From Candidatus Latescibacterota bacterium (GTDB lineage: Bacteria; Latescibacterota; UBA2968; UBA8231), in NCBI GenBank assembly GCA_965261395.1, contig OZ253462.1, forward strand, positions 2,208,001-2,272,000: a stretch of 64,000 nt of DNA, read 5' to 3'. The translations under genes and the position numbers were made by a program. The first letter of the stretch is position 1; every line of letters begins with the position of its first letter. The notes below the pieces were generated by a model. The model did not search any database. It worked only from the letters and a program-made list of their open reading frames with translations, and was not told where the DNA came from. This document shows positions 46,571 to 52,912 of this stretch, one piece after another.

Positions 46571-48637
46571 ATGGACTACGAAAAGCTTAAAGCACATCAG
46601 ACGGTTTTGCTAGATCTCTATACATCCTTGAGCGAAACCCTTAAAAGAGAGGGTGATGAGGTTGATTCAGACCTAAAGGCGATGCAAGAGAATATTGCAG
46701 CGGAGAAGTTTTTGCTCGCCATCGTTGGGGAAGTAAAGGCAGGGAAATCGACCTTCATCAATGCAATTCTTGGGGAGGCCATGTTGCCTTCTGATGATCT
46801 ACAAGCGACCTCTCAAATAGTTGAAATCTACAAATCTAATAAGATAGAGGTTGGATCTACTTTCGCTAATGGCAGATCGGAAGTCGTTGAGGAAGATAAA
46901 GCAGTTCCATTTCTCAAAGAAATTGCTTCCATCAATGACGATTCTCGCGGTATTCCAATCGTCCAAGTCAGCAGATTCCTGATTGATCATTACAGCGAAG
47001 CAAAGAGAATGGCTGTATTTAAGGAAAAAGAATTGGAGAATTTCTTAAACTCTGATCTTGAAAACATCTATAAATTAGATAAGGAGGAATTTCAAGGAAA
47101 AATCCGCGAATATATCAAGAAAAATATATCATGTGATAAGATTCCCCAAAGAGTTTCCCTCGGTTATCCACATGATTTTTCTGAATTCAAGCATTTCAGA
47201 GTCGTAGATACGCCAGGTATTAATGCGATTGGCGGAATTGAAGATCAAACGAAAGACTTCATTGACGAGGCTGATGCGGTTGTTTATTTGCACGACGCAA
47301 GCCAACTAGAAAGTAAAGCACTTCGCAATGCATTGGAAAAGGAAATCCCTAAAAGGGTTAAAGATCGTCTGATACTTGTCTTGACTCATAGAAGCGAGAA
47401 ATTTTATCCTGGTAGCGATGAACATGAGAAAATATTGAGAGAGGCTAAGAAGCTTTACTCTGAGATTGGATCAGATAACATCTTTTTTGTTGATAGTCTG
47501 ATTGAGCTACATTTGAAAGAGTTCTATGGGAAATCGATGGATGAGATCGATGCTATTCGCAAAGAAGATCCGCAATTACGAAGTTTAACCGCTAGTTGTT
47601 TTGAGGAGGCTGATGGTAATGAATATGTCCTTCTAGACCTATTAGAAGAACAGTCGAATTTCAGAGAAATTCGAGAAAGAATCGAAAGAGACTCAATAGA
47701 TTCTGCTTCTTTTCAAATGAAGAATTTTGCTAGTGCCATGCAAGAAGTGTATGGAGTTATTGAAAAAGAAATTAAAGTACGCATAGCAGACCTGAGAGAG
47801 GATTATAGGGATCCTCAGTTTTTTGCGTCGAAGATACAGAATCAAAAAGATAAAATGGAAAGAATGAAAAGAGATTACAATGAATTTAAAGACAGATTGA
47901 GGGTAGAATTCTCTCCTAGTGATGAGAACAGCAGGTATTCTCAAGAAGTAAATAAAATGATGAAGAGGTTGTCTGACAGGATTAGGAAGAAAATTTTTGA
48001 GCCTAACGACCATAATGACCAGAAAGAAGTAAAAGTCCAGCATTGGGTAAGGACTTTGCACCGCAAATTTGATAATGAAATGGCCAGTTTTGTTGATACA
48101 CTGAATGTAAATTTCCAAAAAGAAATAGAGGTATCGTATAGGAATGTTGGAGTACAAATTGATCACGAAATAAACGTGCCAATGACACCTTTGGACAGTA
48201 TATGGGATACTGTATCCAATGCAGTCGAGGAGAAGACAAATAAGGAATTAGCCGAGGTGGAGAAAAATTTTCGGGATCGTGTAAAATTTGTTTTTTTTCG
48301 TAGATACACTGAAGCTACAGAGGGTAAAAGAGACGAAATAAGGAGTTCTTTTCCAATATACTATTGGGACGAACTACGACCTGAGCTTAGAGAACTCTAC
48401 AAGGGGACAAAGACTAAATTGTCGAAGCAAATCAGTGCGATGATAAATAGCACCTGTGAGGAATATGAGAGTAAACTAGATAGAGAACTTCTAGAGCAAA
48501 AGCAGGATATGAAGAAATTTGAGGAGGATAAAATGAAAAATGAAAAATTAGGAAAAAATATTTTAAGTCTTGAAGAAAAAGAGAAAATAATTAATGATAA
48601 CATTCAAGAATGTATAAGAGTAGGAGGGGAACTGTAA
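46571..48637 (+). CDS. Bacterial dynamin-like GTPase
   Basis: G1 GEVKAGKSTFINAILG, G2 region LPSDDLQAT, G3 VDTPG, atypical G4 THRS, and a long helical/coiled-coil C-terminus. Confidence 0.88.
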   Translation: MDYEKLKAHQTVLLDLYTSLSETLKREGDEVDSDLKAMQENIAAEKFLLAIVGEVKAGKSTFINAILGEAMLPSDDLQATSQIVEIYKSNKIEVGSTFANGRSEVVEEDKAVPFLKEIASINDDSRGIPIVQVSRFLIDHYSEAKRMAVFKEKELENFLNSDLENIYKLDKEEFQGKIREYIKKNISCDKIPQRVSLGYPHDFSEFKHFRVVDTPGINAIGGIEDQTKDFIDEADAVVYLHDASQLESKALRNALEKEIPKRVKDRLILVLTHRSEKFYPGSDEHEKILREAKKLYSEIGSDNIFFVDSLIELHLKEFYGKSMDEIDAIRKEDPQLRSLTASCFEEADGNEYVLLDLLEEQSNFREIRERIERDSIDSASFQMKNFASAMQEVYGVIEKEIKVRIADLREDYRDPQFFASKIQNQKDKMERMKRDYNEFKDRLRVEFSPSDENSRYSQEVNKMMKRLSDRIRKKIFEPNDHNDQKEVKVQHWVRTLHRKFDNEMASFVDTLNVNFQKEIEVSYRNVGVQIDHEINVPMTPLDSIWDTVSNAVEEKTNKELAEVEKNFRDRVKFVFFRRYTEATEGKRDEIRSSFPIYYWDELRPELRELYKGTKTKLSKQISAMINSTCEEYESKLDRELLEQKQDMKKFEEDKMKNEKLGKNILSLEEKEKIINDNIQECIRVGGEL

Positions 48638-48812
48638 TGGAACTACCATGCGTACCCGACTACTGACGTGTGAACTGATCGGACTCTCTGAAAAGTTCAC
48701 ACAGTTCGTCGCCGAGATGAACAGCTTTGTTTTGGATGTCGCTATGCTGATTTGTATTGAGATGATCGGCTGGCCTATATCAGTAAAATAATACCCGTAG
48801 AGGAAAAAGATA

Positions 48813-52498: not shown

Positions 52499-52513
52499 AA
52501 AAGAGAGCATACT

Positions 52514-52912
52514 ATGAGCTTAAAGTGGAAATACGTCGAGCCATTGGACGAGAGCCAATTGTCTAAAGTCGAGGAACATTTCGGCCTCAGCTTGCCGGAG
52601 GATTACAAGAAATCACTTGTGGAATGCAATAGGGGAAAACCCACGTTAGAAAGGTTTGACACCGAATTTCAAAAGGAATGTGTCCTCGATTATATGATCA
52701 ATCTTGAGGAAACGGTCGCCATTGCCCAAGCAATCTCTTCTGAATATGGCGTCGATAACCTAATCCCCATAGGACGAGACCCGTTTGGGAATCTGATTGC
52801 CTTTAGAATTGTAGGTAAGCAGATTGATTCGGTGATTTTTTGGGATCACGAAAGAGGTAAAATTTCTAAGATATCAGATAGTCTCACTGAGTTTCTGGAG
52901 AACCTATACTAG
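52514..52912 (+). CDS. SMI1/KNR4 (SUKH) immunity protein
   Basis: VEEHFGLSLPEDYK..NRG, LIPIGRDPFGNLIAF, VIFWDHE, ISDSLTEFLENL. Confidence 0.92.
   Translation: MSLKWKYVEPLDESQLSKVEEHFGLSLPEDYKKSLVECNRGKPTLERFDTEFQKECVLDYMINLEETVAIAQAISSEYGVDNLIPIGRDPFGNLIAFRIVGKQIDSVIFWDHERGKISKISDSLTEFLENLY

Follow-up and report, generated by a model that had tools for sequence, protein, structure and literature searches.

A dynamin-like protein, a VirB4-like ATPase and exchangeable nuclease-immunity cassettes in a candidate conflict operon of Latescibacterota and other prokaryotes

A stretch of 64,000 nucleotides (the window) from Candidatus Latescibacterota bacterium (assembly GCA_965261395.1, contig OZ253462.1, positions 2,208,001 to 2,272,000) was analysed around an island of low guanine-plus-cytosine (GC) content that carries four co-oriented genes, encoding a dynamin-like protein, a large ATPase, a nuclease toxin and an immunity protein. 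The best explanation of the locus is a conflict operon that is widespread and moves horizontally, of which the window has one copy. The canonical gene order of this operon is a dynamin-like protein, a protein of about 220 amino acids (aa) with a transmembrane (TM) hairpin (here called F3), a VirB4-like ATPase, a nuclease of about 190 aa that bears an N-terminal leader, and a cognate immunity protein. The features of the window copy are listed below in window coordinates, with the basis for each in brackets; ORF stands for open reading frame and AF2 for AlphaFold2.

46363-46570, + strand: left edge of the island and upstream untranslated region of the operon (contig divergence, GC drop)
46571-48637, + strand: dynamin-like protein, 688 aa (ORF, Pfam Dynamin_N)
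48610-48654, + strand: remnant of the F3 start, overlapping the dynamin gene at its 3' end (tblastn)
48638-48812, + strand: spacer of 175 bp, the scar of the F3 deletion (gene maps, DNA comparison)
48813-51950, + strand: ATPase, 1045 aa (ORF, weak P-loop/DUF87 Pfam matches)
48813-50177, + strand: ATPase N-terminal domain, residues 1-455, like that of VirB4 (AF2 model, structure matches)
49512-49781, + strand: Ser/Thr/Gly-rich insert, ATPase residues 234-323 (disordered in models)
50166-51407, + strand: ATPase motor domain, residues 452-865 (structure matches, invariant columns)
51408-51950, + strand: ATPase C-terminal all-helical domain, residues 866-1045 (AF2; predicted docking site of the leader)
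51947/51950-52498, + strand: WHH/colicin-DNase toxin, 183/182 aa (ORF, Pfam)
51947-52189, + strand: N-terminal leader of the toxin, residues 1-81 in the 183-aa numbering (shared among toxins; predicted interface)
52187-52498, + strand: WHH/colicin-DNase-type HNH nuclease domain of the toxin (Pfam, invariant residues)
52514-52912, + strand: SUKH (SMI1/KNR4) immunity protein, 132 aa, its stop codon at the right edge of the island (ORF, Pfam)

The GC content is 0.36-0.47 within the island (about 46363-52911) and 0.57-0.65 in the flanks. The junction between the ATPase and toxin genes reads CTTATGTGATGG, in which the ATPase stop codon TGA (51948-51950) and an ATG at 51950 have an A in common (TGATG). 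Starting from this ATG, which is the likely start, the toxin is 182 aa. Its stop codon TAG ends at 52498 and the ATG of the immunity gene is at 52514, leaving a gap of 15 bp. Four co-oriented genes on a low-GC island, the TGATG overlap and the gap were all described in an earlier note on this DNA, which is borne out in these respects, and its dynamin-like, WHH/colicin-DNase and SUKH identifications are confirmed by Pfam.

Contigs of the public sequencing run X6 leave the window sequence at 46362/46363; at the other edge, 52911/52912, contigs of runs X6, X7, X8 and X20 join from other sequence. Since contigs of other public runs diverge at both edges, the island is an insertion/deletion polymorphism with exactly four genes. 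Neither tRNA genes nor flanking direct repeats were found at its ends. There is a sigma-70-like site at 46388-46416, although such sites are no more frequent than in shuffled sequences, and a promoter and terminator scan of the locus gave no informative enrichment. Four short contigs from metatranscriptome run X20, with at least 99% identity, lie on the dynamin and ATPase genes, which is no proof of transcription, and stretches that are not covered carry no information. All four genes are intact, and their ratios of nonsynonymous to synonymous substitution rates (dN/dS) against relatives at loci L001, L002, L003 and L011 are 0.13-0.42. L002 and L011, like the window, have no F3, and copies without it still show purifying selection.

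A protein search with the window ATPase scored 7999 candidates, 2528 of them at E <= 0.001. Where these relatives are named, it is as 'ATP-binding protein', 'DUF87 domain-containing protein' or 'VirB4 components'. A scan with one genome per species yielded 46 loci (given L numbers here), 41 of which belong to the core family. Upstream genes were counted in the 32 loci with at least 2.9 kb of upstream sequence and downstream genes in the 36 with at least 1.2 kb of downstream sequence. A dynamin gene is upstream of the ATPase gene in 30 of the 32, the exceptions being L004 and L038, and the F3 gene of about 220 aa is between the two in 26. By gene call, a toxin of the F4/F5 family is 3' of the ATPase gene in 34 of the 36 loci. 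A nuclease gene is also directly 3' of the ATPase gene in L005 and L028, bringing the total to 36 out of 36, and an immunity gene is present in 34. The carriers include Latescibacterota, Pseudomonadota, Bacteroidota, Bacillota, Myxococcota, Ignavibacteriota, Cloacimonadota and Calditrichota, together with two archaeal metagenome-assembled genomes. Among the cultivable carriers are Pseudomonas sp. WN033, Halopseudomonas xiamenensis, Advenella alkanexedens and Thiofilum flexile DSM 14609. It is strongly supported that the gene linkage exceeds chance and that the genes travel together across phyla. A recurring linkage of ATPase homologs to dynamin genes (30/32), nuclease genes (36/36) and immunity genes (34/36), which the earlier note had proposed to look for, does exist.

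The fifth canonical gene, F3, is lost from the window by deletion. Only its first 15 or so codons survive: residues 1-12/15 of the F3 proteins of L001, L005 and L008 match 48610-48654 with 73-83% identity (tblastn, E 0.003-0.008). At the DNA level, the window is again similar to L001 and L003 only from 48786 on, after the F3 gap. A contig of run X7 (record 19, 48547-48905) spans the identical F3-less junction with no differences. No F3 was found elsewhere in the genome of the window using the L001 protein as the query. Where it is present, F3 encodes a hydrophobic hairpin around residues 115-170, where one or two TM segments are predicted; it has no Pfam or NCBIfam match and belongs to no named Atlas cluster. 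F3 is also absent from L002, L006 and L011, which are interspersed with F3-bearing relatives on the ATPase tree, and L004 has neither the dynamin gene nor F3. In the spacer there is a hydrophobic mini-ORF of 24 codons (48717-48791, + strand; ATG 48717, TAA 48789-48791), overlapped by a weak tblastn match to the C-terminus of the L003 F3 (E 0.035), which may be a remnant or chance.

The toxin has Pfam matches to Colicin-DNase (1.7e-26) and WHH (3.9e-19) over residues 81-178. The WHH-motif residues W147, H148 and H149 and the downstream H164 and H169 are invariant in the family, and all are present in the window toxin. Its nearest solved sequences are the Rhs C-terminal toxins 8bd1 and 8h8a. The immunity protein matches SMI1_KNR4 (5.8e-19) and SUKH_6 (8.2e-19). 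Across the loci, WHH-SUKH cassettes are the most frequent (16 loci), followed by LHH-SUKH_5 (9; LHH is PF14411, 9.7e-24), REase-like-DUF7832 (7) and a single cassette that pairs the nuclease Endonuclea_NS_2 (NS_2) with DUF1232. The locus on a viral contig has an HNH nuclease and a weak SUKH match.

Residues 1-80 of the toxin have no Pfam match. However, a leader of about 60 N-terminal residues is common to the WHH, LHH, HNH, NS_2 and PD-(D/E)xK-like nucleases, with the consensus M-[LIV]-E ... SPLxxSMExIENxSLExLKAxNE. The Latescibacterota clade has a diverged form of it (...SGAxELSETLSAIxKEIPRE...). Because this conserved leader is present, the toxin is not carrier-less, as it had been supposed to be. 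The toxin types are dispersed across the ATPase tree. For example, in sister Flavobacteriaceae the same chromosomal site has a WHH toxin in L022 and L026 and an LHH toxin in L024, and the leader of the WHH toxin P0135 is 82% identical to that of an LHH toxin. It is therefore strongly supported that the nuclease-immunity cassette has been swapped behind a constant leader. The earlier note had asked whether toxin-immunity pairs vary while the ATPase is constant, and this is what the scatter of cassettes over the ATPase tree represents.

A profile of the leader was searched against 1.84 billion representative proteins at E <= 0.001, identifying 41 proteins; the match begins within the first 10 residues in 37 of these. 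They are 52-282 aa long except for two long, repetitive proteins (P0154 and P0173), which were judged spurious along with a lone FliH match and excluded as effectors. For the 33 that are 147-282 aa long, Pfam matches are to LHH (9), Colicin-DNase/WHH (7), NS_2 (2), HNH (1), Col-Pyo_DNase (1) and FliH (1). Those without a Pfam match have PD-(D/E)xK-like motifs, as judged by eye. No non-nuclease effector (lipase, amidase, pore-former or ADP-ribosyltransferase) is among the 33. Each of the 41 core loci was mapped with a single toxin gene and a single immunity gene, no orphan cassettes of either kind following downstream, and the genome of the window has a single copy of the toxin. The 6.55-Mb genome was also searched for markers of type VI secretion (T6SS; VipB/TssC) and of type VII secretion (T7SS; WXG100). 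There was no match to either, both searches being positive in control genomes, and for these markers the lack of T6SS and T7SS genes first reported for the window extends to the whole genome.

Pfam matches to the ATPase are weak and restricted to P-loop, DUF87 and AAA families, with no match to CagE_TrbE_VirB (the VirB4 family) at E <= 0.1. In NCBIfam, VirB4_plasma is matched at 1.3e-10, far under the cut-off, CedD at 1.6e-17 and CedB weakly. The best PADLOC matches are partial, to mad8 (3.8e-18) and to HerA models (4e-14, C-terminal part only). It is from the models that a clearer picture emerges. The full-length AF2 model has a predicted local distance difference test (pLDDT) score of 81.5 and a separate model of residues 1-455 has 74.8. 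In structural comparisons (VIA), the best match to the motor (452-865) is the C-terminal domain of VirB4, 4ag5 (Z 32.5, 350 residues aligned, root mean square deviation (rmsd) 3.1), followed by DndH-C 7es4 (Z 31.5), HerA 4d2i (Z 26.9) and TrwB (Z 22.0); EccC and EssC domains have Z 13-17. The best match to the N-terminal domain is TrwK/VirB4, 7o42_A (Z 15.4, 252 aligned, rmsd 3.5), the runner-up chain having 7.4, and the top 10 Foldseek matches to this domain are TrwK/VirB4 chains throughout. From these models it is strongly supported that the ATPase is VirB4-like in both its N-terminal domain and its motor. The earlier note had placed it with HerA. It is indeed a large P-loop ATPase of 1045 aa, but HerA membership was rejected because the N-terminal domain is VirB4-like rather than a HAS barrel.

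The ATPase has a single motor domain, with Walker A GLTGSGKTT and Walker B VIEEAH; the invariant columns include G493, G498, K499, T502, E740 and E741. Helices run from residue 875 to 1044 at the C-terminus of the AF2 model, and tblastn matches of more distant homologs to the window ATPase mostly end at about residue 871. The Ser/Thr/Gly-rich insert (234-323) is disordered in both models and is about 40 to about 110 residues long among homologs. The NCBIfam 'serine-rich protein' model NF033849 matches the ATPase at 2.5e-30.

A complex of ATPase residues 452-1045 with the toxin, both given as alignments, was predicted in three runs with three controls. The ipSAE interface scores were 0.70, 0.01 and 0.73 (median 0.70), with contact agreement between runs of at least 0% and a partner pLDDT of at least 62, and the best of the three controls scored 0.00. 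Among solved complexes, 58 of 80 come up to the score threshold of the tool, as do 2 of 110 mismatched pairs. The confident part of the predicted interface brings the conserved stretch of the leader (toxin residues 37-81) together with ATPase residues 889-1045. Modelling of the ATPase with the toxin, as the earlier note had suggested, thus supports, as a prediction, docking of the leader on the C-terminal helical domain of the ATPase.

The dynamin-like protein has a Dynamin_N match (9e-17) on residues 49-272 and a partial match to the PADLOC LeoBC model (2.5e-13), and its nearest solved sequence is Nostoc BDLP 2j68 (5.8e-7). Of its GTPase motifs, G1 (GEVKAGKST) and G3 (DTPG) are conserved in the family. 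The G4 motif is T-H-x-x (also written L-T-H-x) in the whole family, not (N/T)KxD (region 47354-47425, residues 262-285). Its nucleotide preference is uncertain given this non-canonical G4.

Within its phylum the element is accessory and patchily distributed. Of 168 genomes of the phylum, 13 have the ATPase, 15 the immunity gene and 10 the dynamin gene; in the genus the ATPase is present in 5 of 31. Gene maps show at least three different chromosomal sites occupied within the phylum. A deletion series was found at one chromosomal site in relatives. Genome G081 (L054) retains only toxin residues 32-183 and the immunity gene; G088 (L055) has fragments of the ATPase along with the toxin and immunity gene; and in G083 (L056) dynamin codon 62 is fused to immunity codon 37.

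Some of the genes that flank the operon belong to defence families. WYL/WCX regulators are the commonest, adjoining 7 of the 22 loci outside Latescibacterota and making up 7 of 115 flanking proteins; in four loci (L012, L015, L016 and L034) the WYL gene is directly upstream and co-oriented. In the Flavobacteriaceae loci L022, L024 and L026 (about 3300-15400), the operon has an N6_N4_Mtase DNA methylase gene on one side and a ResIII/RE_endonuc gene on the other, and so looks like an insertion in a type III restriction-modification unit (Mod/Res). HsdM is near the operon in L014 and a Piwi protein in L038. In the window itself, two features adjoin the island, both outside it:

52914-53225, + strand: solo MntA-like nucleotidyltransferase (NTP_transf_2 7.4e-7; NCBIfam MntA_antitoxin 1.3e-10, below cut-off)
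53294-54915, - strand: pair of AbiEii toxin (1.1e-37) and AbiEi antitoxin (7.5e-47)

The MntA-like gene begins 1 bp past the immunity gene stop codon, at the right edge of the island, and is not followed by a gene for a HEPN partner. AbiEii/AbiEi is a known abortive-infection toxin-antitoxin system.

The possibility that the element is phage-borne was rejected, there being one locus (L050) among IMG/VR viral contigs and two weak, partial matches in GenBank phages. A plasmid-borne element was likewise rejected, since plasmid matches are distant (at most 39% identity and 81% of the query) and in other gene contexts. One of these distant ATPase homologs (29% identity over residues 28-872) is on the mobilizable Acinetobacter piscicola plasmid NZ_CP048660.1 (L047, 4843-9105), with a WYL-domain gene before it and five hypothetical genes after it. 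At L038 (7860-13811), which is without dynamin and F3, the ATPase and a WHH toxin are followed by a 688-aa Piwi-domain protein (5.2e-10). The ATPase tree was built with FastTree and has long-branch warnings for L036, L038 and L042-L045. The last of these form a distant clade (about 27% identity) with no dynamin gene, flanked by zinc-ribbon 2-TM proteins. In L042 (4000-10343), two such proteins are encoded upstream of the ATPase and a 558-aa protein ending in a MafB19-type deaminase downstream, and in L045 there is an 847-aa OmpA-domain protein downstream.

No named system was found to match the architecture, which the earlier note had not recognised as one either. None of the four window proteins has a PADLOC v2 model of its own. 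In full-text literature (main text of openly available articles), no account was found of a dynamin-like gene linked both to such an ATPase and to a pair of nuclease and immunity genes. Term searches did not find 'dynamin' in the main text of PMC3113570 or PMC3482391, nor 'GTPase', 'SUKH', 'VirB4', 'polymorphic', 'WHH' or 'immunity protein' in the text of the 2024 Dnd reappraisal.

The polymorphic toxin systems (Zhang et al. 2011, PMC3113570; Zhang et al. 2012, PMC3482391) share with this operon the constant N-terminus, recombining C-terminal nucleases, an immunity gene directly downstream and the same Pfam toxin and immunity families. They differ in that the toxins described here are about 150-280 aa, with a leader of about 60 aa outside Pfam, and have none of the RHS, LXG, PAAR, CDI or MuF carriers. 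Orphan cassettes are missing, every effector found is a nuclease, and the toxins are partnered by a dynamin-like protein and a VirB4-like ATPase. The recognised trafficking domain or secretion-system link of polymorphic toxins was found neither by Pfam on toxin residues 1-80 nor by the T6SS and T7SS marker searches of the genome.

Type IV secretion provides the closest structural comparison, VirB3-VirB4 (TrwM/TrwK of R388; 7o42, 8rtd, 4ag5) resembling the ATPase in both N-terminal domain (Z 15.4) and motor (Z 32.5). The ATPase is also usually encoded after a small TM-hairpin protein, F3, which to judge by its topology may resemble VirB3. Unlike type IV secretion systems, the operon has no VirB6, VirB8, VirB9, VirB10, VirD4, pilin or relaxase genes. 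In addition, the ATPase differs from VirB4 in its extra C-terminal helical domain and Ser/Thr/Gly-rich insert, and in having dynamin-like and nuclease-immunity partners. The T7SS ATPases EssC/EccC with LXG/WXG toxins are alike in the FtsK/HerA-superfamily ATPase, N-terminal helical toxin region and adjacent immunity genes. In contrast to these, the ATPase here is VirB4-like with a single motor domain, not the three of EssC, it has a dynamin-like partner, it is present in diderms and archaea, and there is no WXG100 match in the genome.

Defence modules based on a motor ATPase (HerA-NurA, Sir2-HerA/Nezha, DUF4297-HerA, DndFGH, TdpAB and MAD7-MAD8) have a motor of the same FtsK/HerA/VirB4 class (Z 20-31) beside an effector; the ATPase described here is encoded next to a nuclease effector that it is predicted to bind, and the neighbours of the operon are of the defence-island type. 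Here, however, the N-terminal domain is VirB4-like and not a HAS barrel, the small nuclease, presumably toxic by itself, is predicted to dock by its leader and has its own immunity protein, a dynamin-like and a membrane protein are added, and there is no methylase or Sir2 partner. The operon has neither the Sir2 gene of Sir2-HerA nor the DUF4297 gene of DUF4297-HerA. As for MADS, only the mad8 model matches the ATPase and the island has no other mad gene; MADS is described as an eight-gene mad1-mad8 operon with a methyltransferase (PMC13662399).

Bacterial dynamin-like proteins are also present in other conflict contexts, namely B. subtilis DynA and a two-gene dynamin defence system (LeoA/LeoBC), later called Eleos. 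According to the preprint that describes it (Millman et al. 2022), this system consists of two consecutive dynamin genes only, the phosphate-binding (GTPase) motif of both being needed for defence. The operon differs from that system in its single dynamin-like gene, which has a non-canonical G4 and is linked to genes for an ATPase, a nuclease and an immunity protein.

That these genes act as one functional unit had been proposed from the window alone. The linkage, the cassette variation and the predicted docking agree with this, with corrections to the HerA identity, the carrier-less toxin and the composition of four genes. Between the two roles offered, export and phage-triggered suicide, genomic context and effector repertoire lean towards intracellular defence. 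An intracellular system against invaders (phages or plasmids), of the 'motor ATPase plus nuclease effector' kind, is tentatively favoured over export, at a probability somewhat short of even. In such a system the immunity protein would keep a constitutively active nuclease silent, while the leader would hold the nuclease where an ATPase ring associated with the membrane opens to the cytoplasm. The dynamin-like protein might sense infection as stress on the membrane or from the entry of DNA, upon which ATP hydrolysis would free the nuclease from the immunity protein, or feed DNA to it. The outcome would be that the invading DNA is cut or that the cell's own DNA is destroyed (abortive infection).

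This defence reading is favoured because the recognisable effectors are all nucleases, because the neighbours include WYL, restriction-modification, HsdM, Piwi and AbiE genes, and because there are no orphan cassettes downstream. It is also favoured because the same compact operon is present in archaea, monoderms and diderms without envelope-spanning parts, because copies without F3 remain under purifying selection, and because related ATPase-nuclease defence modules exist (the DndH C-domain, the HerA partners and MAD7-MAD8). Several points weigh against it. An immunity protein is not usually required for defence effectors. There was no signal linking the operon to phages, and defence neighbours are not overwhelming, WYL, the top family, making up only 7 of 115 flanking proteins in raw counts. 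One of the three complex runs scored 0.01. The closest structural relative of the ATPase in both domains is VirB4, a part of a membrane secretion machine, and the usual partner gene encodes a TM hairpin, both of which fit export. Finally, the combination of WHH/LHH nucleases, SUKH immunity and a constant N-terminus is the classic hallmark by which secreted polymorphic toxins are known (PMC3482391, PMC3113570).

It is possible, though on balance unlikely, that the operon instead serves specifically to deliver toxins in antagonism between bacteria or between archaea, with the leader as an export signal read by the C-terminal domain of the ATPase. The ATPase would strip off the immunity protein and thread the nuclease to a conduit formed by the TM-hairpin protein, and the dynamin-like protein would remodel or fuse membranes (vesicles, bridges) so that the nuclease reaches the cytoplasm of a neighbour. 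A constant leader on polymorphic C-terminal toxins with adjacent cognate immunity genes is as expected for export, and a VirB4-type N-terminal domain and motor with a small 2-TM partner recall VirB3-VirB4. The T7SS ATPase EccC binds its substrates at the cytoplasm-distal end, and it is at this end of the ATPase that the leader is predicted to dock. The MafB19-type deaminase C-terminus encoded after a distant-clade ATPase is a typical secreted-toxin domain, the immunity gene persists without the ATPase in G081, and the genome lacks the T6SS and T7SS markers of alternative toxin carriers. However, no signal peptide, receptor-binding domain or translocation domain is seen in the toxins of about 190 aa, and the operon is unchanged in diderms, monoderms and archaea yet has no part spanning an outer membrane or cell wall. 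The restriction of effectors to nucleases, the lack of orphan cassettes in the gene maps, the repeated loss of the TM gene with the other genes kept, and neighbours of defence type also argue against export. An envelope-independent protein-delivery pathway of a kind not recognised before, in which a VirB4-derived motor reads the leader of about 60 aa, strips off the immunity protein and, with the TM-hairpin protein and a dynamin-like remodeller, moves small nucleases out of cells or into neighbours in both bacteria and archaea, is rather unlikely.

There is a small chance that toxin and ATPase are not coupled at all, an addiction pair hitch-hiking beside an unrelated dynamin-ATPase unit, or the window copy being a non-working remnant without its TM gene. 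The deletion of F3 and the series in G081, G088 and G083, where the pair persists alone in the first, are consistent with this. Against it, gene order is kept across at least ten phyla with the stop/start overlap of ATPase and toxin, the leader is confined to small proteins of the toxin kind, and docking is predicted with clean controls. The four window genes are also intact and have low dN/dS against four relatives, two of them F3-less, and the identical F3-less junction is present in another public run. Very improbable is a membrane apparatus for handling DNA rather than a weapon, either for uptake or exchange, as in archaeal Ced, or a competence nuclease with its inhibitor. The CedD match, CedD being a DNA-translocating ATPase, and the weak CedB match would suit such a function, as would a motor of the FtsK/HerA/VirB4 DNA-pumping class and effectors that are all nucleases, including Endonuclea_NS_2 in one cassette. 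But unrelated nucleases are rapidly exchanged along with their matching immunity genes, a mark of conflict and not of housekeeping DNA processing, the distribution is patchy and accessory with frequent decay, and in the gene maps the operon has no genes for a pilus, a pore or a DNA-binding receptor.

This module, found across phyla and in both bacteria and archaea, may be a new anti-invader defence or a new route of toxin delivery. It combines features of motor-ATPase-plus-nuclease systems with those of polymorphic toxins, and there is a real chance that it is something categorically new. If it acts in defence, it would join dynamin-like proteins, secretion-type motor ATPases and toxin-immunity nucleases, themes that have so far been apart, and would give bacterial dynamins a testable biochemical partner. 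If delivery is true, it would be a new minimal secretion system with its own family of polymorphic toxins. The leader and its predicted docking domain provide a concrete interface that can be mutated, and the natural variants without F3, including the window copy, offer a ready means of testing the need for the membrane component.

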